A DNA stretch of 63,574 nucleotides, counting the filler. It is 8 parts of 8 records of this genome, joined end to end, with 100 filler letters (N's around TTAATTAATTAA, not from the genome) between each part and the next. Parts side by side here need not be neighbours in the genome. Positions count along the whole stretch, not along the records: positions 16,636 to 31,073 come from SRR31147125_7950; 7 more parts are not named here. The stretch is one strand, 5' to 3'. A program made the position numbers and the translations under genes. The notes under the pieces are model-generated. The model was not told the origin of the DNA. It was given only the letters and a program-made list of their open reading frames with translations, and did no database searches. Positions 16,636-45,083 of the stretch are shown here, in pieces. Numbering within the stretch: position 1 is the first letter of the stretch; the number at the start of each line of letters is the position of its first letter.

Positions 16636-17337
16636 CTGTTTGGTCATGAAAAAGGTGCTTTTACCGGGGCTCAAAGTCGGCGTAAGGGAAAATTTGAAAT
16701 GGCTGACCGTGGTACACTGTTTCTGGATGAGATTGGTAACATTAGCCAAAAGATGCAGATGGAATTATTGCGTGTTCTTGAAACGAAACAATTCACACGT
16801 GTAGGTGGTAATCAATTAATAAACGTGGATATCCGTCTTATTTGTGCTACGAATAAAAATTTGGAAATGGGCGTTAAGGATGGTAGTTTCCGGGAAGATC
16901 TGTACTATCGGATAAATGTATTTACAATTATTTTACCGCCACTTCGGGAACGTCGTTCAGATATACCTTTACTGGCCCATCATTTTGTGACAAAATATTC
17001 CCAGATCATGAACAAGTCCATTTCGGAAATAGAACCGGAAGCGATGGATCTTTTAATACGACACGACTGGCCAGGTAATGTACGTGAATTAGAAAACGCA
17101 ATAGAGCGAGCCATGGTAGTGGGGCATCCTCCAAAATTAAAAGCTCAGGATTTGCCGTTCCAACTCATTGATAACGTTAAAGAACCACAGGTGGATTCTC
17201 TTGCTGCGGCGGAAAAAAGACATGTTTCTTATGTTTTATCAAAGACGTCCTGGAATATTAGTCAGGCAGCTGGATTGCTGGAAATTGACAGAGTTACATT
17301 ATACAATAAGATAAAAAAGTATGGCTTGCAAAAGTAG
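16636..17337 (+). CDS. Sigma54-dependent transcriptional regulator, 5'-truncated
   Basis: [31 protein letters not shown], Fis-type HTH. Confidence 0.93.
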   Translation: MFGHEKGAFTGAQSRRKGKFEMADRGTLFLDEIGNISQKMQMELLRVLETKQFTRVGGNQLINVDIRLICATNKNLEMGVKDGSFREDLYYRINVFTIILPPLRERRSDIPLLAHHFVTKYSQIMNKSISEIEPEAMDLLIRHDWPGNVRELENAIERAMVVGHPPKLKAQDLPFQLIDNVKEPQVDSLAAAEKRHVSYVLSKTSWNISQAAGLLEIDRVTLYNKIKKYGLQK

Positions 17338-17887
17338 CCTTTCAGATGCCATCAAACTTGTTCCCATTCAGATTTCAGACAAAACTCTTATTTCCAATCT
17401 GGCGCAGGAGATATCACAACATTTAGGTTGCGACGTCATGACGATTGATCTGGAATTTGACGCCACCTATGCACACGATCCCAGACGTGGTCAATATAAT
17501 TCTTCTGAAATACTTTTAGGGCTTAAACACCTGACAGATCCAGGTGCTCACAAAGTGATAGCTGTTACTGAGCTCGACTTATTTATCCCCATCCTTACAT
17601 TTGTATTTGGTGAAGCGCAATTAAATGGTTCATTTGCGGTTGTTTCCACTTTTCGGTTACGGCCTGAATATTATGGCCTGCCCAGAGATGATGCTCTCGT
17701 CGAAAAAAGACTGCTGAAAGAAACCATTCATGAATTAGGTCATACTTTTGGATTGCGTCATTGTCCTGATTATAATTGCGTTTTACATGCTTCTACTTAT
17801 GTTGATGAAATTGACCTGAAAACATCCAATTTTTGTTCTGCATGCCAGGAGAAATTAGATGTTTTCAGAAAAAATGATCCATTATAA
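17321..17887 (+). CDS. Archaemetzincin-family Zn metalloprotease (M54)
   Basis: HELGHTFGLRHC-x4-C motif, FVFGEA, C-terminal FCxxC. Confidence 0.9.
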   Translation: MACKSSLSDAIKLVPIQISDKTLISNLAQEISQHLGCDVMTIDLEFDATYAHDPRRGQYNSSEILLGLKHLTDPGAHKVIAVTELDLFIPILTFVFGEAQLNGSFAVVSTFRLRPEYYGLPRDDALVEKRLLKETIHELGHTFGLRHCPDYNCVLHASTYVDEIDLKTSNFCSACQEKLDVFRKNDPL

Positions 17888-17918: not shown

Positions 17919-19426
17919 CTAGATAGGGGGTGAAGCATGGCATTCATAGCAGCCAGTTTCCCGCCATTCCTCGCCAATATCAACCGGGTGTTTGAATTCG
18001 AGCGATTGTTGTGATGAGGCATACTGCATTTCATTGTTACTGCCCTGTGCCGTGATGATATGACAATCATCGCACTTGTTTGAGATTGTTTGTCCTGATT
18101 CACTCACATGACGTCCGTCATGACATCGATAACACCCTCCACTTGTCATATGTCCAATGTGTTCCGGATAGTATTCCCAGCGAACTCCCATTTCAGGGAA
18201 AATATTTTTTGAAAAAGCATTTTGCAAACCGGTGATCGATTTTTCTAACGCTGCAGGATTTTTATCAATAATCTCAGGATAATTGTCCTCGTAAAAGGTT
18301 TGTAAATACGCAGCTACTTCTTCCAATGCTTGCTCTTTAGATTCATATTCCTGACTACATGCTTCGACAGCAGCTTGTTTAATCATGGGTAGAATTGTAT
18401 CCATTTGTCCGGATGCAAGAGCAATATTGGTAAATTTTGAAGGATCACGATATATGTGACTTGGTCTGTTATGGCAATCTATACAATCCATAGTTCGTTT
18501 TTCGCTAAACTCTGTTTCACTCTCATCAAAAGGCTCATCTTCGTCGTTGAAGATGACCTGTTCACCGGTTTTCAAATTGGTCATTATGACTCTGGGAATA
18601 CTGGATCTCTTTTCGTTGGTGGTTATATATTCGATTTGAATATCCGGATTTATGTGCCAGTGAATGCCTGAACTTTGCCCAAGAGCCGGATTACCGCCAC
18701 CCGTATTCAAAAGCATATCGATTTCCCAACGGGTATTTTCTTCATCAGGCAGGAAATAGAATTCCCTGCGCTGCTGTTTACCATAAATTTTTTGTGGCCA
18801 GTGACATTCTTCGCAGGTCTCCCGGGCAGGACGTAAATTTTCAATAGGTGTTGGAATGGGGCGTGGATAGCTGTTTGTAATGGTTGCATAGACCTGATAT
18901 AATCCACTCATTTTTGATTTTACATACCAATTTGCTCCGGTACCTACATGGCATTCAGCACAGGTAACGCGTGCGTGTGGAGAGGATTGATAAGCTGTAA
19001 ATTCAGGGATCATCAGATTATGACAAAGGGTTCCACAAAACGTGTTGGATTCTGTAAAATGATAAGCCTCATAACTACCCAGAGCAGAAAGGAAGAAGAA
19101 CATGAGCGTTCCAATTGTAAATATGATGGTTCCATTACGATGCCTTGTCAGGTTTAAATTTAATATAGGTAATTCATTGGGAGGCATTGCCTCTTCTTTT
19201 TTTGTTTTTTTATTCGCAGAAACATTCCAAGTGGTATGAGCACCAGACCCAGAATAATAAATGCAGGGATGGCAATAAAAATGACAATTCCGACATAGGC
19301 TTTGTCTAGAGTGGAAATGGAAGATAACACATAAAGAAAAATAAACATAAATAATGAAATAAGTGCAATAGCTGTGCCGGCATAAGACACTGTGTTATAG
19401 TATGATTTTGGTAACCGCAGCTTCAT
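17919..19426 (-). CDS. Membrane-bound NapC/NirT-like multiheme cytochrome c (6 CxxCH + 1 CxxxCH), frameshift at T-run ~19200
   Basis: Three N-terminal TM helices over ORFs 19160-19426 and 17919-19187; FCGTLCH, CAECH, CEECH, CIDCH, CYRCH, CDDCH, CYECH. Confidence 0.88.
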
Positions 19427-21548: not shown

Positions 21549-22796
21549 TCAGGATCGTGATTTTTCACTCCCTCGAATATAAAATACAAGTAGACTAGCA
21601 ACCAATAATGTTAATACAACCATGATCACTAACATTTTCTTGCGGTTTCCTACTTCTTTTAAAGCAAGCTGACCAATTTCAACAGCATTGTTTGCAGCCT
21701 CTAGACCCTTGTCAGTGCTTGATTCGACTTTATCAGTTGAAAATGTATGAATCAGAGTTTTTGCCTGAATCAGCGCGTCTTTAGCGTTGGGTAAATTCAA
21801 TTTTTCATCTTTGATTTCAACACCAGCACGTTGTGCTTTTAATAATAATTCTTCAGCAGAGGAAATTTTGTTCTCCAGGCTCTCAATGGCTTTATGCATT
21901 TGTGCGGCATTATTGAATCCGATGGAATTTTCTTCGTGACATTGAATACAGATGGCCGGTTCTTCAGTCCCAAGGACGACCTCTGCAGCAGGTTGAACCG
22001 CATGGTTGCCGTGACACGCTTCACACTCTGAAAGGCCCAATTCATCAAATGCCGATTTATGCGGGCTTGCCGAGAAATATTCAGATTGGACATAATGACA
22101 AGTGCCGCATATATTGGCAATTGAGGTAATTCCCGGTGGAACAGCACCATGGTTACCATGGCAATCATTGCACGTCGGTGCACTCAAATCACCCTTTTCG
22201 TATAACATGATAGCATGTATACTTGTTTTGTATTCATCATATTGATCTGTACCAATCGAGTATCCTGTCATATAATCCGGATCCGAATGGCATTGTTTGC
22301 ATAAAGTTGCTAAATTTGTCGGGTATACAGGTGCTGTAGGATCTTTGACTTTTTTGATATCATGAATACCATGACAGTTTGTGCAGGTGGCAACTTTTGT
22401 ATCACCTTTGGCTAGCAACAGACCATGCTGACTCGTTAAATATCGATCATATTGATCCACCGGAAAATTGGGATCAAAATTACGCATAAATGTGACATTA
22501 CTATGACAATTTGCACATAATTGAGGTGTTTCAAAGGAAGTTGGTTTTCCTTTAAAGCCTTTGGCCACGGACATTGACAAGTCCGGGTCCTCCTGTGTCG
22601 GATCACCCCCATGACAACCTTGACAAGATATCTGTGGATTCTGGTGAGCACTTGTTTGCATTTGTTTTACCGGATTGGCGAGAAGAGAATCCAGTTCCAC
22701 ATGACAAGTAACACATGTGTTAGTAGAAGTATCACTTTGCCCGTACGCAAATACAGCGTAAAAAATCCCGAGAATTACAAATTTATATTTTTTCAA
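21549..22796 (-). CDS. Nonaheme cytochrome c with signal peptide and C-terminal membrane anchor, probable acceptor subunit of the Rieske/cyt b complex
   Basis: Nine CxxCH motifs; C-terminal hydrophobic helix; directly downstream of cytochrome b. Confidence 0.9.
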   Translation of the reverse strand: MKKYKFVILGIFYAVFAYGQSDTSTNTCVTCHVELDSLLANPVKQMQTSAHQNPQISCQGCHGGDPTQEDPDLSMSVAKGFKGKPTSFETPQLCANCHSNVTFMRNFDPNFPVDQYDRYLTSQHGLLLAKGDTKVATCTNCHGIHDIKKVKDPTAPVYPTNLATLCKQCHSDPDYMTGYSIGTDQYDEYKTSIHAIMLYEKGDLSAPTCNDCHGNHGAVPPGITSIANICGTCHYVQSEYFSASPHKSAFDELGLSECEACHGNHAVQPAAEVVLGTEEPAICIQCHEENSIGFNNAAQMHKAIESLENKISSAEELLLKAQRAGVEIKDEKLNLPNAKDALIQAKTLIHTFSTDKVESSTDKGLEAANNAVEIGQLALKEVGNRKKMLVIMVVLTLLVASLLVFYIRGSEKSRS

Positions 22797-22834
22797 GATT
22801 ATGCCCTCTTACAAATGATTTTATTTGATCAATT

Positions 22835-23914
22835 TTAATCGAACAGATATGATACCATTGTCATAACTATGATGTAAATAGCTAAAATAATACCGATCAT
22901 CGTATATAAAGGGCTCTTAAGGTTTTTTTGTGAACGCCTGTCAAAAAAGGGAACCAATGCCCAAAATAAAAAACCAATGCCAATGCTTAAAATAGCAATT
23001 GCTTCGCCATCCAGAGTTAAGATTTTACCGGGAATATATTTCAACGTCTGAAATAAAAATACAAAAAACCATTCCGGTTTAATTCCCGGAGGCGCAGGCG
23101 CAAAAGGATCTGCCTTGTCACCTAATTCCCAGGGGAAAATGGCTGCCAGTATACCCAATAGTCCAAGTACAACAAGCCAGCCAACTGCATCACGCAGGAT
23201 AAAATCGGGAAAAAATTTCATGTTTTTTGGATTTTGTTTAAATTCCTGCGAGAGTGAGGGAGGTACGCTCATTCCTTGTGCTTGTATAAAAAGAAGATGA
23301 ATGCCAAGAAACAAAATCGTTATCATGGGCAGTAAAGCTACGTGGAATCCAAAAAAGCGGGTTAAAGTTGCGCCGGTGACTTCTTCACCCCCACGCAAAA
23401 ATATGAGCACATCATGACCAATAACAGGTATAACGGTTGCCATTTCCGTGCCAACCTTTGTGGCAAAGAAAGAGAGTTTGTCCCATGGTAAGAGATAACC
23501 TGAAAAACCGAATGCCAAGGCTAACACAAGAAGTAGCACACCAGACAACCATGTCATTTCTCTTGGCTTCCGATACGCTTTCATAAAATAGGTGCTAAAC
23601 ATGTGTACAAAGAGGAAAAAAATCATAAGATTGGCACCCCAGCTGTGAATGGATCGAATGAGCCAGCCAAAGCGCACAGAGGTCATAATGAACTCGACAG
23701 ATTCATACGCATTTTCTGCAGAAGGACGATAATAGAGAAGCAAGAGAATGCCTGTAAACACCTGGATGATATACAGGAAGAGAGTGATTCCCCCGATTCC
23801 ATACCAAAAATGATATTTGTGTACTGGTACGACTTTTTTATCCATAAAAGTATTCATACCACTAAGGTCAATGCGTTCTTCAAACCAATCTTGTAGCTGA
23901 TTTAATAGTTTCAC
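22835..23914 (-). CDS. qcrB: Cytochrome b of a Rieske/cyt b complex (probable GTG start at 23914)
   Basis: [34 protein letters not shown]. Confidence 0.93.
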
Positions 23915-23927
23915 TGAACTTGTACTC

Positions 23928-24380
23928 CTATGCTTTTTTTGAAACGATAATATCTTCCCCGCTAATGAAAACATTAAAAGTTTCTAAAGGGGCAGGAGGT
24001 GGGCCTGAGGCAACATTGCCATTAAGGTCAAAATTGGCGTTATGACAAGCGCACCAAATGAGTTTGGCGTCTTCCCGGTATTGCACTGTGCACTGGAGAT
24101 GAGTACATACGGCAGAAAAGGCGCGATATTCCCCATCAGGTAAATGAATCAATATAGCTGGTTTGTTGCCAAACGGAAAAAGTTTAGCACTATTGGGTTT
24201 GAGTTCATCAATGGATGCCGCTTTTACGGAATTCTGGGTCGACTCTGGTACTTCGGGGGGCATAATAAAGCGCCAGACAGGATAAAATAACATTCCCAAA
24301 AAAGCAAAAAGGCTGGATAAAAAACTCCCAACAAGAAATTTCCGTCTTTTCGTATTTGTATTAACCATAAAGCACTCCAA
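23928..24380 (-). CDS. qcrA: Rieske 2Fe-2S subunit
   Basis: Tat-like RRKFL plus TM; CTHLQC and CACHNA; GPPPAPL. Confidence 0.93.
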
Positions 24381-24479
24381 AATGGATTTACAAGTTCAGA
24401 AAAACTATAATAAACTTAATGGTGCTTCGCAATTGAAAGACAAAAATAATAAGCAAAAAAAAACGTGAAATTTTAAAAA

Positions 24480-24941
24480 TTAATAGTCAGACTTTAATAA
24501 ACTTTTGGGATCATTGAGTAACTGGGGACAGGCTAAATAAACATCGCAGGTTCGGCAATTCTTGTTCGCTTTTTTGCACGAGGTATCTGATAGTATCCAA
24601 CAGGGTAAGGCGTTTTCAGTGAAGGCTCGACAGTTTTGATGACATTCTTTTGGACAATTTAAAATTCGCCAACAGGGTGTTAATGCCGCCAGGTGTTTGA
24701 TGGCTTCGATATTTAATCTATGAACTCTAATCATTTTAATGATTAATTCGAGATAGATTATATCATGTCTTGAATAAAGTCGGCGTTTTGTATCTGTTTT
24801 AAATGGGATGATTAAACCACTCTGTTCGTACATTCTAAGAGTCGGAACAGCGACACCTAATTTTTTTGCCGCGTGGCCAATGGTGTAAACCGGTTCATAA
24901 TACATACTTGCTCTACTGTCAACGATCATAGCATTCCTCAT
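24480..24941 (-). CDS. MerR-family (HspR-like HTH) regulator with Cys-rich two-CW-type C-terminal domain
   Basis: YTIGHAAKKLGVAVPTLRMYEQSGLI..RRLYS; PCW..CP..C..C..PCW..C..CxxCDVY. Confidence 0.88.
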   Translation of the reverse strand: MRNAMIVDSRASMYYEPVYTIGHAAKKLGVAVPTLRMYEQSGLIIPFKTDTKRRLYSRHDIIYLELIIKMIRVHRLNIEAIKHLAALTPCWRILNCPKECHQNCRAFTENALPCWILSDTSCKKANKNCRTCDVYLACPQLLNDPKSLLKSDY

Positions 24942-24956
24942 TCTATATTTTCAACG

Positions 24957-24998
24957 ATAGATTATATATATTTATTGACATTTTGTCAAGGTAAATTA
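24957..24998 (-). promoter_or_regulatory. Consensus sigma70 promoter with palindromic operator over the -35 box (copy 1)
   Basis: Minus strand TTGACA-17 nt-TATAAT; dyad TTGACA-N3-TGTCAA at 24975-24989. Confidence 0.85.
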
Positions 24999-25314
24999 TG
25001 TCAAGATTGTAATGCGTAACATTTATTATTTTACATATTTAAACCAGAAATTGTCATATTTACCATGATTATTATTTGTCTATGCAGTCGATCTTTGATT
25101 CATTGCAAGATAAAATTCTGTGGAGCATTGACATGTTTCTGACTATGAAAGTTTATTACCATGATTTCATTAAATTAAAACTTTTTTAAATTCATATTTA
25201 CAAATAGCCGGGATGATGCGTGTCTGGTACAATATCAGTAACATAATTCAAAAGTGGACCATCAGTTGGTATTCTTTCATTCAAATATCATTTTTTACTC
25301 ATCGTTTCTATAAA

Positions 25315-25353
25315 AGAAAAGCCGGTGTGAAACTTTATGACACCGGCTTTTCT
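25315..25353 (-). terminator. Intrinsic terminator after the large cytochrome
   Basis: AGAAAAGCCGGTGT..ACACCGGCTTTTCT hairpin with T-tract. Confidence 0.8.
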
Positions 25354-25392
25354 GGTGTTGTATGGAAATTTTGACGGTCAGTCCATATGAGA

Positions 25393-27978
25393 TTATTTCA
25401 GGAATACCATTTTTTTAGAGAATGTCTGGGATCTCGATTCTAATCTATACAAGTATGTTCCTGCACTGACCATTTGACCATTATCATCATGACCATCCCA
25501 TATTAAAGTATGATATCCGCTCGCAAATGTGCCGTTAGCCAATGTACGAACGTGTACACCACGAATGTCATAGACATTGACAACGATTTTTTCGCTTTGA
25601 GGAATACCAAATTCAATCACTGTTGTTGGATTGAATGGATTTGGATAGTTTTGGGCCAGGCTGAATTCCGTTGGTATAGAACCTTCTCTTGATTCTACAT
25701 TAGTAACCAGAACGCTTGCCTCATCGGAGGTTTCACTCTCGTTCCTGTTAAAATCAACAGCTGATATTTTATAATAGTATGTTTTCTGTGCTGTTAATTC
25801 AGAGTCTACAAAATCAGTACCCGTAAGTGAGGCAATCAGATTTTCTTCTGAAGGAATAAATCCACTGACTTCACTGCGATAGACTGCAAAGTAATTGAAA
25901 TCCTCATCCACAGGATCTTCCCATGAGAGAATGACGTCATTTCCAGCAGATATCGCCAGCAGCCCTGATGGAGCCATAGGATCAAGATTGTCCAAAGAAT
26001 AACCTTCAGACGGTACAGATTCATGGGCATCTCCGGAACGTGTTATTCCAACTATTTTAAATGTCGTCATAACAGTATCACCAGGTGTTGCGTTATAAAC
26101 CGTTGGAACAACCAGTCCATAACGAGCGCTACCGTCAGCGGTGTGTTGTCCAACACCTGTCCATACATCCCCATCGAGTCGTTTAACAGTGTAGGTCACG
26201 ATTGGATCAACAGCGATTCCGTCATCAACCAATTTGTCCCAAATGATCAGTACTTGTTTACCCTGATCGTCCGGTACATCATCTATAGCAACAATGTCAC
26301 CTACGCCAGAATTGTTAATAACTGCTTGTATGGTTACATTTAAAAGAGCGACAGTAAATGCAGGATTATGAACACCGAGACTGCGATCTTCCTCGATCAG
26401 AAAATAGTTGTACGCAGCAGTTTTTTCAGTAGCAGTGTAAATATAGTTTTCATCTCTTGCTTCTACTTCTAAAGAATCTTTTGGATGCAGCAACAAAGCT
26501 AGGTTATGTAATAATCCCTCGACCTCATGTTGTAGCCCTTCAGCTTCGCCATCACCATCATGGTCTGCATTGCCATTATAATAGTATTTTTTCTCAGCAA
26601 AGCTCGTTCCAACATCGCCATGACAATCCTGACAAATGGCCACGTTATCATTACCGTTTATATCAACGACACTGAAAGAATGAGCTCCTGCGGTTAATAC
26701 ATTATCCTCTTCGTCTACATGTCCCGGAGCCATGTGACAGGTAACACAGGTGTTTTCAATCTCAGTATGAGCGGAAATTGGAAGCTTTTTGCCAAAAGTG
26801 GGAACATTTACACCAAACAACACTTCAGCCTGTGGGCCATGATGTGGTTCGGGTCTGCTGGTTTGAACTCTTTCTAAAGCAATACGGCGGCTATTATGAC
26901 AGTTAGCGCAGAGATTTCCTCTTCCACCATCTAAAACATCGCCATTGGGAAGTTCAACAGGATCCACTGTTCTAAGCTGATGAGCATTTTCGGCACTGTG
27001 TGGCTCATGGCAGGTTGCACAAGTAATCGCAGTCGCTTCAGGTGCTTCTAGCAGGTCTTGTCTGCCACCTTTAAGAAACTCTACAAATCCGGCACCGCTG
27101 TGACAGGGAGCGCAGCTTGTTCTTGAAGCGAATCTTAACAACTCTGGATTACCATGTTTTGACACATCCCATTGTTCAGGATAAACATGATGTGTACCTG
27201 CATCGTGGCAGAGTGCACAATTGTCGGAGCCTAAGGGGGCAACCATTTTTGAATCAGATGTGGTACCAAAGTGTTCACTTCCCGGGCCATGACACGATTC
27301 ACATTGAATGTTTGCCCGTTTCATGGCTGAGGGATACAGCGCTACAGTAGAATCATACACTCCTTCAGCAAGCGTTTGAGGGAACGCAAAAACAAAGTCG
27401 TCAAAGCCCATATTGGAAGCATTGACGTCGTAACCAACTGTATGGCAGGTGATACAGTTAGCACCATAATGACTGCTAGCTGTTCCATTCAGGCCTCGTA
27501 CCAGCATATCGGAATGACCGGTCTCAGCCCATTGTGCCGCTTTATCACCGTGACAATTCGCACAGCCACCATCTTCCATTCCTGTATATGTGCCGGCATT
27601 AATTGTTACCGATGCAGTTTCAGTACCGTCAGCAAATTCAACAACGTATGTTCCAACAACATCCGGCGTAAATACAGCAACCTGAGTAGCTGTATCAACA
27701 TCCACTGTTACAGTAATTGCGGCTGCTGAATTTGTTGGTGCCTGAGTGACAGTCCAGGTTGGCGAAACCAAACTTTGCCCGTCAACAGATCCTTCCAGAT
27801 ACATTTGAGTTTCAACACCAACGTTTAGCAATCCATTGAACGCGCGGTCGAAAACATCTAATGTATCACTATCGGCATCTCTGGGAGAGATACCATGGGT
27901 TCCCAAAGTCAGAGTTTGGGAAAAAACGACTGCACTACAAAGTAATGCGATTAATAAAAATACGACTGTTTTGTGCAT
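25393..27978 (-). CDS. Exported nonaheme cytochrome c with N-terminal beta-rich domain, FN3-like domain and C-terminal T9SS type-A/FlgD-Ig domain
   Basis: Signal peptide after GGGAGG SD (start 27978); nine CxxCH; EEDRSLGVHN; DHDGDGEAE Ca-loop-like motif; FSLAQNYPNPFNPTT..KKMVFLK. Confidence 0.88.
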   Translation of the reverse strand: MHKTVVFLLIALLCSAVVFSQTLTLGTHGISPRDADSDTLDVFDRAFNGLLNVGVETQMYLEGSVDGQSLVSPTWTVTQAPTNSAAAITVTVDVDTATQVAVFTPDVVGTYVVEFADGTETASVTINAGTYTGMEDGGCANCHGDKAAQWAETGHSDMLVRGLNGTASSHYGANCITCHTVGYDVNASNMGFDDFVFAFPQTLAEGVYDSTVALYPSAMKRANIQCESCHGPGSEHFGTTSDSKMVAPLGSDNCALCHDAGTHHVYPEQWDVSKHGNPELLRFASRTSCAPCHSGAGFVEFLKGGRQDLLEAPEATAITCATCHEPHSAENAHQLRTVDPVELPNGDVLDGGRGNLCANCHNSRRIALERVQTSRPEPHHGPQAEVLFGVNVPTFGKKLPISAHTEIENTCVTCHMAPGHVDEEDNVLTAGAHSFSVVDINGNDNVAICQDCHGDVGTSFAEKKYYYNGNADHDGDGEAEGLQHEVEGLLHNLALLLHPKDSLEVEARDENYIYTATEKTAAYNYFLIEEDRSLGVHNPAFTVALLNVTIQAVINNSGVGDIVAIDDVPDDQGKQVLIIWDKLVDDGIAVDPIVTYTVKRLDGDVWTGVGQHTADGSARYGLVVPTVYNATPGDTVMTTFKIVGITRSGDAHESVPSEGYSLDNLDPMAPSGLLAISAGNDVILSWEDPVDEDFNYFAVYRSEVSGFIPSEENLIASLTGTDFVDSELTAQKTYYYKISAVDFNRNESETSDEASVLVTNVESREGSIPTEFSLAQNYPNPFNPTTVIEFGIPQSEKIVVNVYDIRGVHVRTLANGTFASGYHTLIWDGHDDNGQMVSAGTYLYRLESRSQTFSKKMVFLK

Positions 27979-29138
27979 AATACCTCCCATAGTTAAATTT
28001 GCACTCCTGATTTATCAATTTAGATTGTAGAGTCATCACCTCCTTAAAAATGCTAGATGTTTTTGTTTCAATTAAAACCATCAAAAGTAGTTTTAATGTA
28101 CCTATTCTGATTTATATAGCATGTATGATATAATTCAATTAATTTACAGCGATGAGATTCAAGAAAATAAAATCCTTGCCTTTGGCGAAAATAGGAGTAA
28201 CAGACCCTATGGATTGAAACTGTGGTGATTTCATCAGTGAGTATAGACAGGGCATTATCATGAGCATAACATAACAGTCTGACGTCCTGGCAATATTATA
28301 ATGTATTCTGGAGTTCAGAACATGTGACAGAAAAACAATCGATATCTGCCGTTCGGTAAAATAATTATGAAATCTGCTAATTTACCTAAAGAGGATGCTT
28401 TTCTACTTTGCTGTTAGAGCTTGGTGAGCAATGCTGCTTTTAATCTATTCTGGTTTGACCAGCATAATTCAGGAACCCAATATAAACACGGCTTGAGATA
28501 GAATGAAATGTCTTCAACAATGTTCAGCCTCGAAAGAAAAACTGCACGGAAAATGTCCTGCTTTATGAACCAGCCAAATATATTCCACAAAGAGTTTTAT
28601 TTAATAATTAAACGCAATTAACGCGCTTACACATTGTGTAATGTGAAAAAAAATGACAAAGACGTGCGATTACGTGAAAATATCAATAGTTAATCACACC
28701 TGATATTTTAGGGATGAAAATCAAATTTGGATAAATTAACCTGACATTACAGGTGCGACCATTATTTCTTGTATTATCACAAAAGGCAATCATTAGTAAA
28801 TAATAGAAAAGTTTTCTAACTGTTCTACATTATTGAAAAAAATGATGGGACGATTAATACTTTAAAATTTGGCTGTAAATTCTACGAGTTGCCTGTTACC
28901 CTTTTTGTCCAATCAATAAACTTTTAGCTTTATTCGTAATCAGTTATAATTCACTTAATCAGTTTAATGCAATGATTGGATCTGTCTTACATGTGATAAT
29001 TAAAACATTCTTTTTGTACAAGAAAAGAATCGGAATAACAGAACTTTATTTGCATCAATCTGGCTCGTTTAAATAATAAGCTCTTTTTAGATTAAGGAAA
29101 AGTATGCTAAGCATACGAGAAAAGCTATATTGACGACT

Positions 29139-29180
29139 ATAGATTATATATATTTCTTGACATTTTGTCAAGATAAATTA
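29139..29180 (-). promoter_or_regulatory. Second copy of the promoter/operator (40/42 identical to copy 1)
   Basis: ATAGATTATATATATTTCTTGACATTTTGTCAAGATAAATTA; dyad TCTTGACA-N3-TGTCAAGA. Confidence 0.85.
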
Positions 29181-29414
29181 AATTATTATTGAGTTTTGAA
29201 TGTAATTTTCACATTCATTAATCAAGCAATCTAAAAAATAAACCAATTCCATATATTTCCTGCTTTTGTGAGAATAAAGCCTGTATAAAACTATGTTAAT
29301 ATATAAAAATTAGTAAAATATGATGTGATCAAAAACAAAGGAGGTGATCAACTCCCTAAAACTATAAAATATCTTAATTAGTGAGGTGGCTTATCAAGAA
29401 ACGTTGGAGGTGGT

Positions 29415-30986
29415 ATGAATACTAGATTATTAATAACGTTAATGTTGTTTTCGTGTTTAGTCTTACCATTTTTATCCGGAAGCTCTCTGACATTTGCTAC
29501 ACCTGATTATTATTTGGGTGATAATGAAACCAATTGTGCCGGCTGTCATGGTGACGTAGTAAACAGTTGGAAAGTAACAGCCCACGCCTCGGCTCACGAT
29601 TCCATATCGTTCCTTGGATTTAGTTGTTTAGAATGTCATAACGTCGGTTGGAATACAGATGTTGTAAATTACGGTGCTGATGAGTATATTTTAGCTGGTG
29701 AAGAAAATGCTTATACTGTGACAGATTCGACAAATTTTTTCAGAGTCAAAAATATACAATGCGAAAACTGTCATGGTCCTCTTGGTAAAGAAGACAGAAC
29801 ATTTCTTGGATTTGCCGAACACCAGGAGGCGGCTGTCGTAAGTTTTGCTCCTGAAAACTGTGGTGTTTGCCACCAGGGTAGTCACCACCCAACCTTTCCG
29901 GAATGGGAAATGTCCAAACATGCCAAATCCAAAGCAACTACTATTCCAGGTGGTGCATTCGATTTTATCGCATCGAATCCTGGTTGTGCCGGATGTCATA
30001 CGGCTGAAGGTTTTCTCCAGTTTATTGAGCAGGAAGAATTAGAACCCAACGTTGATCCACCTGGCGATGCCGGCAATGATCTTACCTGTGCCGCTTGTCA
30101 TAATCCCCATGATAATACAAATCATGCCCAATTGCGAATGACTGTTGAAGAAATTTGCGTCAAATGTCACAATCCGGAATATAATCCGGATGAGGTAGGA
30201 GAACCGGATGGTTCGGATGTTCACCATTCCACCGCTTTTATGTTTGAAGGTAAAGGTGGTTATGAATATGAGGGATTTGATTATGCAAGTTCCGCGCATA
30301 CATTTGTTGTTACCGAGAAATGCGTCGAGTGTCACGTATTCATGACGCCATTTGTGGGTGAACCGGAAGAGATACCAGCATATACCGGACATACCTTTGA
30401 ACCTCAGGGAGGTTCTTGTGTTGAGTGCCACGAGGATTTTGATGTTGAAGCGGAGAGTTTTGATTATCGTGGTATTCAAACCCGAATTGATAGCCTTTCT
30501 CACGTACTTGAAGAAATGCTTACCATGGCATCAACAGCCGATTCTCTTACGCCTGCATTTTTGCGTGCCCGATTTAATCTCGAGTTTGTTCATGCAGACG
30601 GCAGCCATGGAATTCATAACACAAAATACGCAGAGGGACTGCTGGTATCCGCGATTCAAAACTATATTGAAACAGATGTTGCAACCAGCGATGGCGCAAC
30701 TCTACCTATGACATATTCTCTGGAACAAAACTATCCAAATCCATTCAACCCAACCACTATAATCACATTTAATCTGCCCAAGTCTGAACGTATCAGACTC
30801 ACCATCTATAATTTAGCAGGAGTCCTGGTGCGCCGGCTTGTTGATAACCAATTAGCAGCCGGTCAACATGATTATTCCTGGAACGGATATAATGAATATG
30901 GGCAACTGGTTAGTGCAGGAGCTTATATTTACAGGTTGGAATCCGAGTCTACCGCCATCACCAAAAAGATGATACTACTCAAATAA
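29415..30986 (+). CDS. Exported nonaheme cytochrome c with C-terminal T9SS type-A/FlgD-Ig domain, paralog of 25393-27978
   Basis: Signal peptide; nine CxxCH; HADGSHGIHN; YSLEQNYPNPFNPTT..KKMILLK; GGAGG SD. Confidence 0.88.
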   Translation: MNTRLLITLMLFSCLVLPFLSGSSLTFATPDYYLGDNETNCAGCHGDVVNSWKVTAHASAHDSISFLGFSCLECHNVGWNTDVVNYGADEYILAGEENAYTVTDSTNFFRVKNIQCENCHGPLGKEDRTFLGFAEHQEAAVVSFAPENCGVCHQGSHHPTFPEWEMSKHAKSKATTIPGGAFDFIASNPGCAGCHTAEGFLQFIEQEELEPNVDPPGDAGNDLTCAACHNPHDNTNHAQLRMTVEEICVKCHNPEYNPDEVGEPDGSDVHHSTAFMFEGKGGYEYEGFDYASSAHTFVVTEKCVECHVFMTPFVGEPEEIPAYTGHTFEPQGGSCVECHEDFDVEAESFDYRGIQTRIDSLSHVLEEMLTMASTADSLTPAFLRARFNLEFVHADGSHGIHNTKYAEGLLVSAIQNYIETDVATSDGATLPMTYSLEQNYPNPFNPTTIITFNLPKSERIRLTIYNLAGVLVRRLVDNQLAAGQHDYSWNGYNEYGQLVSAGAYIYRLESESTAITKKMILLK

Positions 30987-31003: not shown

Positions 31004-31043
31004 AAAGCCGGCATCTGTTTTCATCCAGGTGCCGGCTTTTTTT
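31004..31043 (+). terminator. Intrinsic terminator
   Basis: AAAGCCGGCA..TGCCGGC followed by T7. Confidence 0.85.
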
Positions 31044-36367: not shown

Positions 36368-36751
36368 AAAAAAGGGCTTAAAATCGACGTGCAGTTAATG
36401 CCCATAGACATACGGCTTTACTTTAATGAAGGTCAAATGCGACAGGTATTGATGAATATTCTGTTAAACGCCATTCAGGCCAGTCCTGTGCATGGGGTAA
36501 TAAGTATGAGTGCAAATCAAAATAAACAAAAAGTATTTCTAAAAGTCAGGGATGACGGACCAGGCCTTTCTGAGGAAACAAAAAAACATCTTTTTGAACC
36601 ATTTTTTACCAACAAACCAGACGGAACCGGATTGGGGCTTGCCATTTCCAAAAGAATAATGGATAATCATAACGGTCGAATTCGTATTGATTCTGCTTCT
36701 GAAAAGGGTGCTATATTTATTCTGGAATTTGAGAAAAGTTATGAAAAATAA
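36368..36751 (+). CDS. Sensor histidine kinase, C-terminal HATPase fragment
   Basis: QVLMNILLNAIQA, DDGPG, FEPFFT, GTGLGLAIS. Confidence 0.9.
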   Translation, partial: KKGLKIDVQLMPIDIRLYFNEGQMRQVLMNILLNAIQASPVHGVISMSANQNKQKVFLKVRDDGPGLSEETKKHLFEPFFTNKPDGTGLGLAISKRIMDNHNGRIRIDSASEKGAIFILEFEKSYEK

Positions 36752-38093
36752 TCAAGATGAAATACTACTCATTGACGATGATATCAGCTTATGCACAGTT
36801 GTCTCGCATCAGCTGGAAAGTATGGGCTATGTGGTTACGGTTGCCAATAATGGTGAACGTGGTCTGGAGTCGTTCAATAAATCCGAATATAACCTCGTTT
36901 TGCTGGATTTACGTATGCCGGGCATGCACGGTATGGACGTCTTGCAAAGGATTCGATCGATAAATAATCAAATACCGATTATCATTATTTCCGCACATGG
37001 AACAGTTGACGATGCCATCAAAGCCTGTCACATGGGAGCGGATGATTATGTAACCAAACCTTTTGCCAAAGAACAGCTTTTATTTGCCATTGAAAAGGTA
37101 TTTCGCTTCAAACAGCTGGAAAATGATAACCGTCGATTGAGAAGTGAGCTCTCGGAAAAGTACCAATTGGGCCGTATTATCACTAAAAATAAAGCCATGT
37201 CTACCCTTCTTGACATGGCTTCCCGGGCAGCTCAGAGTGATGCCAGTGTGCTTCTCCTGGGTGAAAGCGGTACCGGTAAAGAATTACTGGCACGAGCCAT
37301 TCATCAAGAGTCACCACGACGAGATAAATCTTTTGTTGCCGTGAATTGTCCGTCTATTCCGGAATCGTTGATTGAGAGCGAATTATTTGGCCATGAAAAA
37401 GGTGCTTTTACCGGTGCATTGAGGGCAAAACCAGGTAAATTTGAGCTGGCTCATGAAGGAACGGTATTTTTAGATGAAATTGGGGATTTAAAGCTGGATT
37501 TGCAGGCGAAATTACTGCGTGTGTTGCAAGAACAGGAAATCGAACGGGTAGGCAGCCTGAAACCCATTAAAATTAATGTTCGAATAATTGCCGCGACGAA
37601 TCAGGATTTATTGAAATTGGTCAAAAACGGGCGCTTTCGTGAGGACCTTTATTACCGGCTGAATGTCATCCCTCTGTCTATCCCGGCTTTACGGGATCGC
37701 AAAGATGATATACCACTATTAGTAGATTACTTTGTACAAAAATATGCGACAAGAGAATTAAAGGTAGATCCGGCTTTTATCGAGCAACTCATGCATTATG
37801 ATTGGCCAGGTAATGTGCGCGAGCTGGAAAATATCGTGCAAAGAGCGACTGTCTTATGTCCCGGAGAAACGCTGGAATGCGATTTTGACGAATTCATCGA
37901 GAAGCCGCGCGTCCGGCTTGAAGGAAAATCTGAAAATTCACATAGGTCGCTTGAGGAGATCGAGAGACAGGCTATTATTACGGCTTTGCAGAAGAACCAA
38001 AATAATCAAACTCGTGCGGCAAAAGAACTTGAGATACCCAGGCATGTGCTTATCTATCGCATGAAAAAACTGGGGATAGCTTCTAATAAATAG
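36741..38093 (+). CDS. NtrC-family sigma54 response regulator
   Basis: REC domain, GESGTGKE, GAFTGA, WPGNVRELEN, Fis HTH. Confidence 0.95.
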   Translation: MKNNQDEILLIDDDISLCTVVSHQLESMGYVVTVANNGERGLESFNKSEYNLVLLDLRMPGMHGMDVLQRIRSINNQIPIIIISAHGTVDDAIKACHMGADDYVTKPFAKEQLLFAIEKVFRFKQLENDNRRLRSELSEKYQLGRIITKNKAMSTLLDMASRAAQSDASVLLLGESGTGKELLARAIHQESPRRDKSFVAVNCPSIPESLIESELFGHEKGAFTGALRAKPGKFELAHEGTVFLDEIGDLKLDLQAKLLRVLQEQEIERVGSLKPIKINVRIIAATNQDLLKLVKNGRFREDLYYRLNVIPLSIPALRDRKDDIPLLVDYFVQKYATRELKVDPAFIEQLMHYDWPGNVRELENIVQRATVLCPGETLECDFDEFIEKPRVRLEGKSENSHRSLEEIERQAIITALQKNQNNQTRAAKELEIPRHVLIYRMKKLGIASNK

Positions 38094-38220
38094 AATTCTT
38101 CTTACCTTTACAAATTTACTCCATTTTAAAAATACTTTCCAAATAAAGTAAAGCCAGCTTTTATAGTGTCTAATTAATTCCCGGAAAATTTAAATCTCTA
38201 ACCAGGATCTTTACGTCACC

Positions 38221-38257
38221 TGTAAAATTGTCTACAAAAGTTGTAGAATATTATACA
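38221..38257. promoter_or_regulatory. Tandem enhancer (UAS) sites
   Basis: TGTA-N8-TACA at 38221-38236 and 38242-38257, 21 bp apart, about 90-120 bp upstream of a sigma54 promoter. Confidence 0.7.
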
Positions 38258-38343
38258 ATCGAAATCTGGTAAAAGATTTTATCACACTATACAAGTCGAG
38301 TTAAGGCTCTTATAATAAGTAATATACGTATGTTATTGAAGAA

Positions 38344-38359
38344 TGGCATGGGCGTTGCA
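38344..38359 (+). promoter_or_regulatory. Sigma54 -24/-12 promoter of the efflux operon
   Basis: TGGCATG-GGCG-TTGCA. Confidence 0.8.
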
Positions 38360-38387
38360 TATAGAATGAGTAATTGGATTATTTTGA

Positions 38388-38678
38388 GTGAAAAAAATGA
38401 AAATACATTATTACACATTACTCTTTTTATTGATCGGCCTGTTTGGATTTATCCTGTTTTTTCCGGTTCCCATATCGGCTACGGATTGTTGTCTTTGGCA
38501 CTATTTATTCCATGAGGAGCAAACAAAAATGGCTGTGTTATCACATGTACATATGAATCATCACCATATGATCCGGGATTATATTTTTCCCTATGGATTT
38601 ATATGGTGGATGAGTATCGCATTTTTATACTGGAGCATCAAAAAATTATCTGAGAAAGGTGAAAGAAAAGTAAAATGA
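38388..38678 (+). CDS. Small two-TM His/Cys/Met-rich protein
   Basis: DCCLWH..HVHMNHHHM between two hydrophobic segments; ATGA overlap with the next gene. Confidence 0.6.
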   Translation: MKKMKIHYYTLLFLLIGLFGFILFFPVPISATDCCLWHYLFHEEQTKMAVLSHVHMNHHHMIRDYIFPYGFIWWMSIAFLYWSIKKLSEKGERKVK

Positions 38679-39943
38679 GGTTCGTTAAATTACTTTTATT
38701 GGTGTTTATTTTCAGCAGAATCGGATTTGCGCAAGTGGAGGTACCAGAGCAACTTACAGGATTCATAGAAATAGCTCTAAAAGACAATCCGAGAATTGAA
38801 GCCGCTTTACAGCGTGTCAACGCCCTTGATAAAGTTGTACCCCAGGCAGGGGCTCTTCCGGATCCGCAGTTAACGCTTGGTTTAATGAATCTGCCTGTGA
38901 ACAGTTTTGATTTTGATCAGGAGCCCATGACCGGAAAATTGATCTCCATCATGCACATGTTTCCCTTTCCAGGTAAATTGGGTTTTTCAACAGATATAGC
39001 TGAATTTGAAACTCAGGCAGGCGTATATCGTCAGCAAGAGATACGCAATCAGGTCGTGACCATGGTGAAGAAAGTTTATTATGATTTATATGTCGCTGAT
39101 CGCGCCATTGAAATTGTACAGGCCAATCAAACTCTTATTGAGCAGTTTGTGAGTGTGGCAGAGACAAAGTATGCCACTGGATCCGGATTGCAACAGGATG
39201 TTTTGCGGGCTCAGCTAGAGTTGTCAAAGATGGAAGATGATCTGATTATGTGGCAACAAAAAAGAAAGATTATTGAGGCAAAACTCAATGCACTATTAGA
39301 TCGTCCCGCACATACCCTGATAGATATAACCAATTCAGAGTTGCCATTACCTGATGATGTTTTAGCAAAAGTGGAATTGGAGAAAATCGAGAGTGACAGA
39401 CCCTTGTTATTAGCCTGGAAAGCGATGTTGAATAAAGCCGACATAGCTGTCAAGCTCGCGCGTCGGGATTACTGGCCGAATTTTACAGTAGGTGCCAGCT
39501 ATAGTCAACGGGATAATCTGAAAAATGGCGCGACGATGCACGACTTTTTTTCAGCCACGGTTTCATTGAACATTCCTCTTTATTTTAATCGCAAACAAAA
39601 GCCAAAAGTACAGCAAAAACAATTTGATCTTGTTTCTCTTCAGTCTGAATATGAGAGCGTGCGGAATGATGTCCTTGCTGAGATCGAGGGTTTGCGCGCA
39701 GAATTGGTGCGAAATCAAAAACGAGTTGATCTTTACAAGGAAGGCATTTTGTTGCAGGCGCAACAATCACTGGAATCAGCCTTAGCCGGATATCAGGTTG
39801 GGAAGGTGGATTTTATTACACTGATCAATAACTGGATGTTATTGCAAAATTATGAATTGCAATTTTATCGCGCATTGGCCGATTACTGGAAGGCTTCAGC
39901 CAGTTACGAGTTTGCACTGGGACGGGATTTGATACAAGAGTAA
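38675..39943 (+). CDS. TolC/CusC-family outer-membrane efflux protein
   Basis: QAGALPDP, FPFPGKL, YATGSGLQQDVLRAQ, YQVGKVDF. Confidence 0.9.
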   Translation: MRFVKLLLLVFIFSRIGFAQVEVPEQLTGFIEIALKDNPRIEAALQRVNALDKVVPQAGALPDPQLTLGLMNLPVNSFDFDQEPMTGKLISIMHMFPFPGKLGFSTDIAEFETQAGVYRQQEIRNQVVTMVKKVYYDLYVADRAIEIVQANQTLIEQFVSVAETKYATGSGLQQDVLRAQLELSKMEDDLIMWQQKRKIIEAKLNALLDRPAHTLIDITNSELPLPDDVLAKVELEKIESDRPLLLAWKAMLNKADIAVKLARRDYWPNFTVGASYSQRDNLKNGATMHDFFSATVSLNIPLYFNRKQKPKVQQKQFDLVSLQSEYESVRNDVLAEIEGLRAELVRNQKRVDLYKEGILLQAQQSLESALAGYQVGKVDFITLINNWMLLQNYELQFYRALADYWKASASYEFALGRDLIQE

Positions 39944-39994
39944 CGCATGGAAAAAAGTGAATAATGTGATATTATTCAGGGAGTGAGATATAAA

Positions 39995-41748
39995 ATGAAC
40001 TTAAAGACATTAGCCATATTAATATTAGGTATTCTGGTTGGCGGCACCGTCACCTATCTGGTTGTGCCAAAGGGTGTCTCAACGACTTCCAGCATGTCGG
40101 AAGAAAATAAACAACTTTATTCATGCGGCATGCACCCGGAAGTGCTGTCAGAGGAACCAGGTGATTGTCCTATTTGCAATATGAAGTTGACACCGATAAA
40201 AAGCAGTGCCCAGGAATCAGAGGGGCCGGACAAAAAGGCGAAATATTGTACTGGCAAGCTCCAATGGACCCCACAGAAATTTACGAAAAGCCTGGTAAAT
40301 CAAAAATGGGAATGGATTTGGTCCCGGTCTATGAGGGTGAGGAAGCAGGTGGGAGTGGCAGTATTACAATTGATGGCGCTATTCAACAAAATATGAATTT
40401 GCGGACTGCTATGGTGGAGCGCCGGCCAGTTTCACGAGTCATTCGTGCGTATGGTAAAGTGACTTATGCGCAGGATAAACAATTTTCAGTCAATACAAAA
40501 TTGAATGGCTGGATCGAAAAACTCTATGTGAACACAGCCGGTCAGCGAGTTCGCAAGGGCGAACCATTATTAGAGATTTATTCACCCGAATTGGTTTCTA
40601 CCCAGGAAGAGTATCTGCTGGCTTTGCGGAATTCAGAAAAAATGGCCTCCAGTTCTTTTGAACGTGTTCGTCAGGGAGCACAGACATTGCTGACTTCTGC
40701 AAGAAATCGTCTGGAGTACTGGGATATTTCAACCGAAGAAATAATGAAAATTGAAAAGACGGGTCAGGTACAACGGACCATTTTGCTAAGAGCACCAATC
40801 AACGGTGTTGTGACCCACAAGGCCGTTGTCCAGGGCGATAAAGTTATGTCAGGAATGGATCTTTTTCACATCGCTGACCTGAATAAAATCTGGGTTGAAG
40901 CGACGGTTTATGAATCAGAGCTCCCATTAGTAAAGGAAGGCCAGAAAGCTGACCTGATGCTGGATTATCAGCCAGGTGAAGTCATTAGGGGTAAGGTTGA
41001 ATTTATATATCCTTATCTCGATCAGAAATCACAGGCAGTAAATGTCAGGATGGTATTTAATAATTCAAAAGGTCTTTTAAAACCGGATATGTACGCAACA
41101 GTCAGCATTCACAGCCCTGTTGTGAGTGACGCGCTCGTGATACCAACGGAATCCGTGATCCATTCCGGCAAACGAAAAATTGTTTTTGTGACGAAAGATG
41201 AGGGTAAGTTCGAACCGCGCGAAATCCGCCTCGGTGCTGAAGGGGATGATGGTTATGTACAAGTCCTGTCTGGCTTGTTTGACCACGAAAAAGTCGTTTC
41301 CTCCGGTCAATTCTTGCTGGATTCGGAAAGTCGCACTCGTGAAGCCATTGCCAAGATGCGAGCTGCAGCCAGGATGTCGGGCGAAAAGCCTGTACAAAAG
41401 AATATGGAGAGCATGAAGCAAGCTGAAGAAAAGCAGGAAGCCCATTCAGAGCATTCGCATGAAATGGATCAAGCGGATATGGAAACCAGTCATGAAGGGC
41501 ATGATCATGCAGAACAGAAATTATACGCTTGCTCCATGCATCCGGATTTTATGACCAGTAATCCAAACGGGAAATGCCCGGAATGCGGTATGAAACTGAC
41601 ACCCATCAAAGAGATGGCTGATCAGGTGGATCCTGATAACGCACAATGGTATACATGTCCTATGCACCTTGATTTTGTGACAACAGATAAGGATGGGCGT
41701 TGTCCGGAGTGTGGGATGAAGCTGGATAAAATGAGCAAGAGTGAATGA
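39995..41748 (+). CDS. cusB: CusB-type RND periplasmic adaptor with heavy-metal-binding motifs, frameshift ~40232
   Basis: YSCGMHP, YWQAPMDP..KSKMGMDLVP, YSPELVSTQEEYL, two further CxMH..CPECGM motifs, His-rich linker. Confidence 0.88.
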
Positions 41749-41783
41749 CCCACTTTCATAAATAATAGAAAACGGAAAAGAAC

Positions 41784-44897: not shown

Positions 44898-44953
44898 ATG
44901 AATGCCAATAAAATATGTAGTAGCAAAGTGAGCACAGAATGCAACGATTAATC

Positions 44954-44981
44954 TCCGTCCCAAGTTGCAACTTGGGACGGA
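44954..44981. repeat. Perfect 28-bp palindrome, REP-like
   Basis: TCCGTCCCAAGTTG|CAACTTGGGACGGA at contig end. Confidence 0.7.
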
Positions 44982-45083
44982 ACNNNNNNNNNNNNNNNNN
45001 NNNNNNNNNNNNNNNNNNNNNNNNNNNTTAATTAATTAANNNNNNNNNNNNNNNNNNNNNNNNNNNNNNNNNNNNNNNNNNNN

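Follow-up and report, generated by a model that had tools for sequence, protein, structure and literature searches.

The DNA analyzed here, a window of 63,574 nucleotides, consists of several contigs placed end to end with N spacers between them, and the finding is confined to one 14-kb contig (16636–31073). On this contig, two divergently oriented genes, A (25393–27990, minus strand) and B (29415–30986, plus strand), encode nonaheme c-type cytochromes of the OcwA/OmhA family that end in a type IX secretion system (T9SS) sorting domain. We assign a probability of roughly 0.6 to the reading that both are surface terminal reductases that are exported by SprA/PorV, processed by PorU, and fed by quinol oxidases through a porin–cytochrome conduit. 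The domain identity, the T9SS tag, the co-occurrence, and the gene linkage from which this reading starts are direct observations.

Both proteins possess a hydrophobic N terminus and exactly nine CxxCH motifs, whereas 20,000 shuffles of each sequence never yielded more than two. They share a DxSxGxHN motif (535 in A and 395 in B) and a tail of the form NYPNPFNPTT...KKM. Motif counts, profiles, and shuffles thus bear out what a prior inspection of the letters (the sequence-only reading) had described as two divergent paralogues. Identity between the two proteins amounts to 28% in the heme domain and 50% in the tail. The CxxCK active-site motif of NrfA and ONR nitrite reductases is found in neither A nor B, all nine motifs being CxxCH, and the only cysteine of the tagged cytochromes outside a heme motif sits in the signal peptide.

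By sequence, the closest solved relative of B is OcwA (phmmer E value 2e-23), and A matches OcwA (PDB code 6I5B) and OmhA (PDB code 6QVM) more weakly than B does. With the AlphaFold model of B (predicted local distance difference test, pLDDT, 90.7), the top Foldseek matches are again OcwA and OmhA (E value 2e-11). The sequence-only reading had proposed a structural comparison with OcwA and NrfA-fold cytochromes, and B proved nearer to OcwA and OmhA (Z-scores 20.4 and 19.4) than to NrfA (at most 15.8), the rmsd to 6I5B being 3.7 across 331 residues. The model of A (pLDDT 90.5) adds an N-terminal β domain and two Fn3-like domains. A Foldseek search with the full model of A returned exclusively Fn3 tandem proteins among the top 50, and a Pfam scan of the N-terminal and middle β domains of A gave no match. 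A and B are OcwA/OmhA-family nonaheme cytochromes.

OcwA possesses two open heme sites under His–His pairs (PMC6703420). The pairs of B at 157/158 and 270/271 align with 281/282 and 380/381 of OcwA, and the corresponding pairs of A are 267/268 and 383/384. In alignments of 108 rows, one histidine per pair is retained in 104–108 of the 108 relatives, and its partner is often tyrosine or another residue. An invariant histidine (295 in B and 408 in A) lies one alignment position from a methionine of OcwA; the structural models carry no hemes, and the alignment suggests that heme 9 may be bis-His-coordinated instead of His/Met-coordinated.

The family is large. Among 8000 scored candidates, the two queries gave 2403 and 1146 matches, some of them via the tail alone. 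Among the labels of the matches are KSB1, Calditrichota, Ignavibacteria, and Marinimicrobia, as well as the cultured Melioribacter sp. Ez-97 and Stygiobacter electus. Both of these organisms reduce Fe(III). A quick tree without outgroup placed A and B in separate subfamilies, with a long-branch warning on the clade of B, and a recent A/B duplication was rejected on this basis. In the same tree, B groups with paralogues whose genes are located immediately upstream of the barrel in the clusters of KSB1 (SH-aLRT 100, long-branch warning). OcwA itself has been placed in a clade of nonahemes from Gram-negative bacteria (PMC7829351), and the tree figure or supplements of that paper may list members of the A/B family.

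The family also comprises fusions with 16–18 hemes and a single tail (about 900–1100 amino acids; A+B, A+A-like, and other+B), which would be a very large cargo if exported folded. Examples are L004:401-3616, L050:6391-9183, P0232, P0162, P0008, P0015, and P0028, with L004 and P0232 being of the A+B type. Tail-less, lipoprotein-like forms occur as a full nonaheme (L010:12827-14587) and as a five-heme form of the C-terminal module just downstream of a barrel cluster (L134:9836-10957). Other T9SS-tailed multiheme families, with seven hemes and other numbers, recur in the same islands (L002:2757-4691, L003:7556-10555, L104:6860, L106:14033, L121:16562, and L125:4035).

The tails of A and B score 32.7 and 38.8 bits with TIGR04183 (cut-off 23), and FlgD_ig also lies above its cut-off. 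The tail of B matches the C-terminal domain of PorU (Z-score 10.4), followed by PorZ and FlgD (8.6 each). By profile and fold, the tail of A and B is a type A T9SS sorting domain, in agreement with the sequence-only reading. With a profile built on the heme domain only, the tail was present in all 30 family members fetched; each of these stands for the best locus in one of 30 genomes among the 46 positive ones from KSB1, and gene maps confirmed nine more of the 46. Searches with queries that included the tail found it in 117 of the top 120 homologues of each protein. In the mapped loci, it was not found on the 12–14-heme cytochromes of the conduit or on the membrane-anchored nonahemes. Furthermore, 198 of the 233 homologues that have a start methionine carry a glutamine after a small residue in the signal-peptide region. 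A glutamine following the signal peptide is a trait of exported proteins of Bacteroidota.

The features of the contig are as follows.

25393–27990, minus strand: cytochrome A, open reading frame of 865 amino acids; probable start ATG at 27978 behind GGAGG; signal peptide ending before a glutamine, N-terminal β domain (27592–27918), OcwA-type nonaheme domain (26311–27591), two Fn3-like β-sandwich domains (25705–26310), and type A T9SS tail (25396–25665)
29415–30986, plus strand: cytochrome B, 523 amino acids; signal peptide, OcwA-type nonaheme domain (29502–30668), and flexible linker
30714–30983, plus strand: type A T9SS tail of B
24480–24941, minus strand: MerR/HspR-like regulator with a Cys-rich C terminus
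23928–24380, minus strand: Rieske 2Fe-2S protein with RR signal and the motifs CTHLQC...CACHNANFD
22835–23974, minus strand: cytochrome b fusion of the b6 + subunit IV type, with PEWF as Qo motif and without cysteine
21549–22796, minus strand: nonaheme c-type cytochrome with one C-terminal membrane helix
19711–21384, minus strand: DUF2339 polytopic membrane protein
17919–19426, minus strand: ImcH-like inner-membrane cytochrome, one CxxxCH and six CxxCH motifs, NapC/NirT homology
16699–17887, plus strand: sigma-54 activator (truncated by the contig end) and archaemetzincin-family M54 peptidase
24943–25009, minus strand: 67-nt promoter/operator element, copy 1, upstream of the MerR-like gene and the Rieske cluster
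29125–29191, no strand assigned: 67-nt promoter/operator element, copy 2, between A and B
31004–31039, plus strand: hairpin resembling an intrinsic terminator, 3′ of B
25315–25353, minus strand: 14-nt perfect inverted repeat, likely terminator, 3′ of A

Exporter genes, the Gld families, and the barrel were searched in related genomes, and all counts refer to these relatives. The exporter search covered the genomes behind 50 of the 57 full-match loci; L003 (from the same genome as L002), L027, L046, and L054–L057 were left out. SprA exceeded its cut-off in 48 of these 50 genomes and in 5/5 further ones. PorU was above cut-off in 10/10 genomes, with the GHG motif in 5/5, and PorV-like genes were present in 5/5 (two above cut-off), as was a CcmF-type heme lyase that scored below the NrfE cut-off. 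The translocon and cytochrome c maturation genes that the sequence-only reading had proposed to look for are represented in the relatives by SprA, PorU, and PorV and by the CcmF-type lyase, respectively, whereas GldK, GldL, GldM, and GldN were not found. SprA may be general in these phyla and would hence show the availability of an exporter and no specific link to the cytochromes. In 13 Melioribacteraceae-like loci, a PorV/PorQ-like gene lies upstream of the family gene, an arrangement that was discounted as synteny within the lineage. Of five genomes searched for a secretin of the type II secretion system (T2SS), three gave no match, among them the two cultured Melioribacteraceae. T9SS components may also occur in other phyla of the Fibrobacteres–Chlorobi–Bacteroidetes (FCB) group (PMC11285876). 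As an observation in its own right, G001–G050 and the 121 KSB1 genomes combine SprA (and PorU and PorV where tested) with no detected GldK, GldL, GldM, or GldN, and a motor-less T9SS independent of cytochromes possibly extends across several FCB lineages.

The gene and profile scan of the contig (16636–31073) revealed no barrel gene, as the sequence-only reading had also noted. The same reading had proposed a secretion route apart from porin–cytochrome conduits, and this part was not supported: every sampled carrier genome encodes a putative barrel. Among 121 genomes of the phylum that holds the closest syntenic relatives (G001 of that phylum is labeled KSB1), the cytochrome family occurs in 46, the barrel in 68, the nonaheme of the Rieske complex in 37, and a close ImcH-like protein in 51 (63 at an E value of 1e-80). 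The putative barrel is present in 46/46 carriers of the family versus 22/75 non-carriers, and in 39/39 carriers when the seven genomes used to build the query are removed. The Rieske-complex nonaheme (27/46 carriers versus 10/75 others) and the ImcH-like protein (40/46 versus 11/75) follow the same trend. In Ignavibacteria, 51 of 81 genomes matched; after eight partial-match genomes were dropped, the barrel was present in 43/43 carriers versus 11/38 others.

Linkage was assessed on draft contigs. Within 12 kb of a family gene, the 46 KSB1 carriers show the barrel in 25, ImcH in 20, the nonaheme in 10, and any of these in 32 genomes, against a chance expectation of about 0.6 genomes per marker. 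Among 32 mapped loci, a script found an 11–14-heme gene after the barrel in 29; two more were seen in the maps, and one locus is cut off. Gene maps of 18 genomes, which were picked for showing linkage, include L113, L114, and L115 with a same-strand run of Rieske protein, cytochrome b, nonaheme, DUF2339, (6-heme and 4-heme cytochromes), ImcH, B, barrel, and 14-heme cytochrome; L104/105 displays a variant order. The closest relative, G171, has the same gene order as the window; its 20-kb syntenic region (L112) is without a barrel, and its barrel cluster lies on another contig. The porin gene of the present genome probably lies just off the 14-kb contig. Porin–cytochrome clusters or iron reductase genes have been reported in metagenome-assembled genomes of Ignavibacteria and KSB1 (PMC7399161 and PMC10732223), and Ignavibacterium album has a predicted pcc cluster with a 400-amino acid 14-heme cytochrome (IALB_1837–1840; PMC4245776).

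Next to A, on the same strand and downstream of it, lie the MerR/HspR-like gene, the Rieske protein, cytochrome b, the membrane-anchored nonaheme, DUF2339, and the NapC/NirT-like cytochrome. The Rieske, cytochrome b, and nonaheme genes that the sequence-only reading had described as an operon beside A and B are present on the minus strand at 21549–24380. The Rieske protein lacks the serine and tyrosine typical of high-potential Rieske proteins. The Ser/Tyr rule links Rieske proteins to redox potential, and the sequence suggests that the complex oxidizes menaquinol. Cytochrome b contains no cysteine and therefore no attachment site for heme ci. The membrane-anchored nonaheme, for which no solved relative was found by sequence, would replace cytochrome c1 in this complex. 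DUF2339, whose function is unknown, is a regular partner of the Rieske–cytochrome b–nonaheme–ImcH cluster (9 of 18 mapped genomes), and four further genomes (L005, L007, L017, and L112) likewise have the MerR/HspR-like gene beside a gene of the A type.

The neighbor formerly described as NapC-like does have NapC/NirT homology and is better assigned by its ImcH architecture. The copy in the window starts at 19426, retains its heme motifs and a PF03264 match, and carries a one-base frameshift near 19196. An intact relative (69–73% identity) possesses three membrane helices and seven heme motifs. A second assembly, probably from the same reads and thus not independent, has an extra base at ∼19196 and no frameshift; the frameshift is therefore probably an assembly error. 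One-base differences between the two assemblies fall in homopolymer runs at 19196, 21493, and 28536, and runs of this kind may have lost bases in the assembly of the window. Since the second assembly, again with the caveat of shared reads, contains the whole contig in one piece, a chimeric contig was rejected. The M54 peptidase (17321–17887) and the sigma-54 activator adjoin ImcH here and in a conduit cluster of Ignavibacteria (L133:15146).

As to the earlier proposal that the adjacent complexes link the cytochromes to the quinone pool, gene linkage to quinol-oxidizing modules holds for KSB1, where 22/46 carriers have ImcH or the nonaheme of the Rieske complex no more than 12 kb away; outside KSB1, the Rieske linkage is loose. 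Tight Rieske linkage as a family-wide trait was rejected (2/57 loci; 37 of the 57 were flanked by 5 kb or more on each side). The nonaheme subunit occurs somewhere in 25/50 genomes of this first set, and its loci instead show putative barrels with 12–14-heme cytochromes and CbcL-like proteins. In G004 and G026 (complete or long contigs), the family and the Rieske-cluster genes are more than 1 Mb apart.

Taken as a mechanism, the proposal would start with Sec export and heme attachment by the cytochrome c maturation (Ccm) system in the periplasm. The folded holo-cytochrome would then be recognized by its type A tail and pass SprA with PorV, and PorU would remove the tail by cleavage and might attach the protein to the surface. 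At the inner membrane, menaquinol would be oxidized by the Rieske/cytochrome b/nonaheme complex and the ImcH-like protein (CbcL-like in some relatives). Electrons would cross the outer membrane via a conduit of barrel, 12–14-heme cytochrome, and lipoprotein cytochrome encoded elsewhere in the genome, and the OcwA-type cytochromes would hand them to acceptors outside the cell, for instance Fe(III) minerals, humics, electrodes, or partner cells. What we infer are the export of the proteins, their anchoring, the direction in which electrons flow, and the acceptor. Because all sampled carriers have a barrel, beside a 12–14-heme cytochrome wherever mapped, the tagged cytochromes appear to be partners of the conduit and not its replacement. 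A wider version, in which a reduced T9SS of SprA–PorV–PorU, without the GldK, GldL, GldM, and GldN energy chain that Bacteroidia cannot do without, exports folded, heme-loaded OcwA-type cytochromes, single or as 16–18-heme fusions, as surface terminal reductases of a conserved Rieske/ImcH-to-porin conduit in KSB1, Ignavibacteria, Calditrichota, and Marinisomatota, has in our view an even chance of being correct.

Several observations weigh against the export of A and B as conduit-fed surface reductases. Profile searches, which very divergent homologues could escape, found GldM above cut-off in 0/50 and 0/121, GldN in 0/50, and GldL and full-length GldK in 0/4 related genomes each, whereas the controls were positive (the Melioribacter phylum showed GldM in 10/41 genomes, and G071 showed all four families). 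In Flavobacterium the energy chain is essential for type A export, as is GldK in F. johnsoniae (PMC12635249). Because GldK, GldL, GldM, and GldN were not detected in the relatives, the system would not be a canonical T9SS. Partial secretin matches in G171 and G006 make a T2SS or pilus route possible in KSB1. SprA and the barrel were seen in relatives only, and the barrel was identified by weak, sub-threshold matches to Pfam porin profiles, barrel neighbors in the Atlas, and context; in NCBIfam it matched nothing at 1e-4, and among PDB sequences nothing of meaningful similarity. The co-occurrence counts are uncorrected for kinship or genome size; the barrel lies within 12 kb in only 6/43 Ignavibacteria carriers, and Rieske–cytochrome b–nonaheme genes lie within 10 kb in only 2/57 loci of the first set. 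Despite having a pcc cluster, I. album showed no growth with Fe(III) or Mn(IV) oxides (PMC4245776).

This last finding also speaks for a different role, in which A and B are T9SS-exported surface enzymes for small substrates (nitrite, NO, hydroxylamine, or sulfur oxyanions) or serve electron uptake, and not the reduction of solid acceptors. Their fold resembles NrfA, ONR, and MccA (Z-scores 15–16 and 9.6), and, again to the detriment of the solid-acceptor reading, both His–His pockets over the five-coordinate hemes are kept, and OcwA slowly reduces nitrite and turns over hydroxylamine in vitro (PMC6703420). OmhA homologues of Dethiobacter are moreover expressed during Fe(II) oxidation (PMC10376724). 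However, small anions reach the periplasm, so that export of such an enzyme would not be needed, the CxxCK catalytic motif is missing from A and B, and ImcH, reported as quinol oxidase only in Fe(III) reducers and found in M. roseus (PMC6295460), co-occurs in 40/46 carriers. We regard this role as unlikely, if worth serious attention.

Less probable still is that the tail is a plain Ig/FlgD-like module unused for export and that the cytochromes are periplasmic carriers between the inner-membrane complexes and the barrel. Such a role would agree with FlgD_ig outscoring Por_Secre_tail in Pfam, with the failure to find GldK, GldL, GldM, and GldN in the relatives, and with the position of the genes between ImcH and the barrel in KSB1 clusters, as for a periplasmic shuttle. 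It is at odds with the retention of SprA, PorU (GHG motif in 5/5), and many PorV paralogues in the relatives, and with a tail that invariably occupies the C terminus behind a low-confidence linker and closes with K-x-x-x-x-K. A tail-less 12–14-heme periplasmic cytochrome is, moreover, already encoded, and a xylanase of Rhodothermus marinus bearing such a C-terminal domain is attached to cells (cited in PMC6539836). We consider it highly improbable that secretion replaces the conduit, with cytochromes charged in the periplasm being released as shuttles or bridging the outer membrane without a porin. Neither this contig nor the 20-kb region L112 of G171 contains a barrel, and 21/46 KSB1 and 37/43 Ignavibacteria carriers have no barrel within 12 kb; however, the G171 barrel cluster is found on another contig, carriers that lack a barrel number 0/46 and 0/43, and one-way export offers no route for recharging.

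The regulatory signals of the contig may tie its two gene groups together. The 67-nt element contains a perfect TTGACA-17-TATAAT promoter and a palindrome, TTGACA-TTT-TGTCAA, over the −35 box. Its two copies are 84% identical, and copy 2 supplies −35 boxes in both directions between the divergent genes A and B. The sequence hints that A/B and the MerR/Rieske cluster form one regulon. In ten related loci, no intact TTGACA-N3-TGTCAA palindrome was found, and the shared operator is thus a feature of this contig only. No sigma-54 promoter consensus lies upstream of A or B, and the window contains 12 matches versus 17 expected by chance. The Rfam scan of the contig matched no family. Both long leaders carry AAGGAGGTGAT (28035–28045, minus strand, and 29338–29348, plus strand) upstream of the true ribosome-binding sites and with no obvious open reading frame; these copies are possibly sites for an RNA-binding regulator. 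In many relatives, a sensor kinase with one CxxCH motif, a sigma-54 activator, and a lone receiver domain precede A-type genes (L001:5629-9915, and similarly in L003, L011, L015, L040, and L048–L050). The sigma-54 activator family occurs in 17/58 loci, and the contig studied here has only the truncated sigma-54 activator of this set.

Three separate contigs of the window carry other material. The one at 45084–52349, which is unrelated to the finding, encodes a Mu-like transposase and an AAA ATPase and is transposable-phage-like. At 52450–63574, a Topo VI-A/Spo11-type Toprim protein, a resolvase, DUF4365, and an insertion sequence (IS) transposase form a mobile-element-like contig, and 36368–44983 holds a sigma-54 response regulator together with an outer-membrane efflux protein and an apparent CusBA-type metal efflux pair (the last two recognized by eye).

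Literature searches, whose coverage excluded most subscription journals and which returned nothing on Stygiobacter, found no report of T9SS-tagged multiheme cytochromes. The system is apparently an undescribed, widespread combination of known parts. If the proposal is correct, A and B would represent the first T9SS cargo with a respiratory role and evidence of motor-independent type IX export, and the family would mark extracellular respiration in 38% of the sampled KSB1 genomes and over half of the sampled Ignavibacteria genomes. It would explain how terminal cytochromes are placed on the surface of largely uncultured FCB bacteria of sediments and the subsurface, several of which have no detectable T2SS secretin. 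The gene set of tagged OcwA-type cytochrome, barrel, 12–14-heme cytochrome, and ImcH would predict mineral, humic, or electrode respiration from metagenomes, and it points to a possible form of respiration in KSB1 and Ignavibacteria-like bacteria that uses acceptors outside the cell. In cultured Melioribacter and Stygiobacter, the passage of a large cofactor-loaded protein through SprA and type IX export without a gliding motor become testable.

OcwA of Thermincola potens (6I5B) and OmhA of Carboxydothermus ferrireducens (6QVM) are surface cytochromes of Gram-positive thermophiles and share the nine-heme core and the C-terminal three-helix bundle with A and B. In contrast to both, the A/B family resides in diderm hosts and bears a T9SS tail. 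B lacks the extra β-domain of OcwA, whereas A has gained N-terminal and Fn3-like domains. Similar to the type A cargo of Bacteroidota (gingipains and ChiA; TIGR04183), A and B combine a signal peptide with a C-terminal β-sandwich carrying the YPNP and terminal lysine motifs, and SprA, PorV, and PorU are present in genomes related to their host. Unlike that cargo, they are heme-loaded respiratory proteins, and GldK, GldL, GldM, and GldN were not found in the host lineages.

The Rieske protein and cytochrome b without cytochrome c1 recall Cabys_2557–2558 of Caldithrix abyssi (PMC5317091) and the ExtP-like cytochrome b profile of Geobacter (NF040969), which are likewise proposed to feed multiheme cytochromes. 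Unlike these, the complex described here has its own membrane-anchored nonaheme and DUF2339 and is tied to outer-surface cytochrome genes, not to Nap. The ImcH-like protein shares three helices, a first motif of CxxxCH, seven heme motifs, and NapC/NirT homology with ImcH of Geobacter sulfurreducens, to which we liken it by architecture and not by sequence. The Geobacter imcH gene is monocistronic (PMC4251993), whereas here it is clustered with Rieske/cytochrome b and the T9SS-tagged cytochromes.

The putative conduit was compared, by description only, with the Pcc conduits of Geobacter (OmbB–OmaB–OmcB) and I. album. As in I. album, a barrel of about 400–430 amino acids is followed by a ∼400-amino acid cytochrome with 14 hemes and by one that resembles a lipoprotein and contains CxxxxCH repeats. 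Unlike in the Pcc systems, the conduit is not on the contig of A and B, and the available part of the I. album paper (PMC4245776) does not mention T9SS-tagged cytochromes. A further parallel exists in Shewanella, and it concerns the surface cytochromes themselves. There, MtrC and OmcA are exported by the T2SS. The idea is the same in both cases, a secretion system placing folded holo-cytochromes on the surface, where a conduit feeds them. A and B would differ from MtrC and OmcA in their fold, in the use of a T9SS instead of a T2SS, and in a sortase-type instead of a lipid anchoring.

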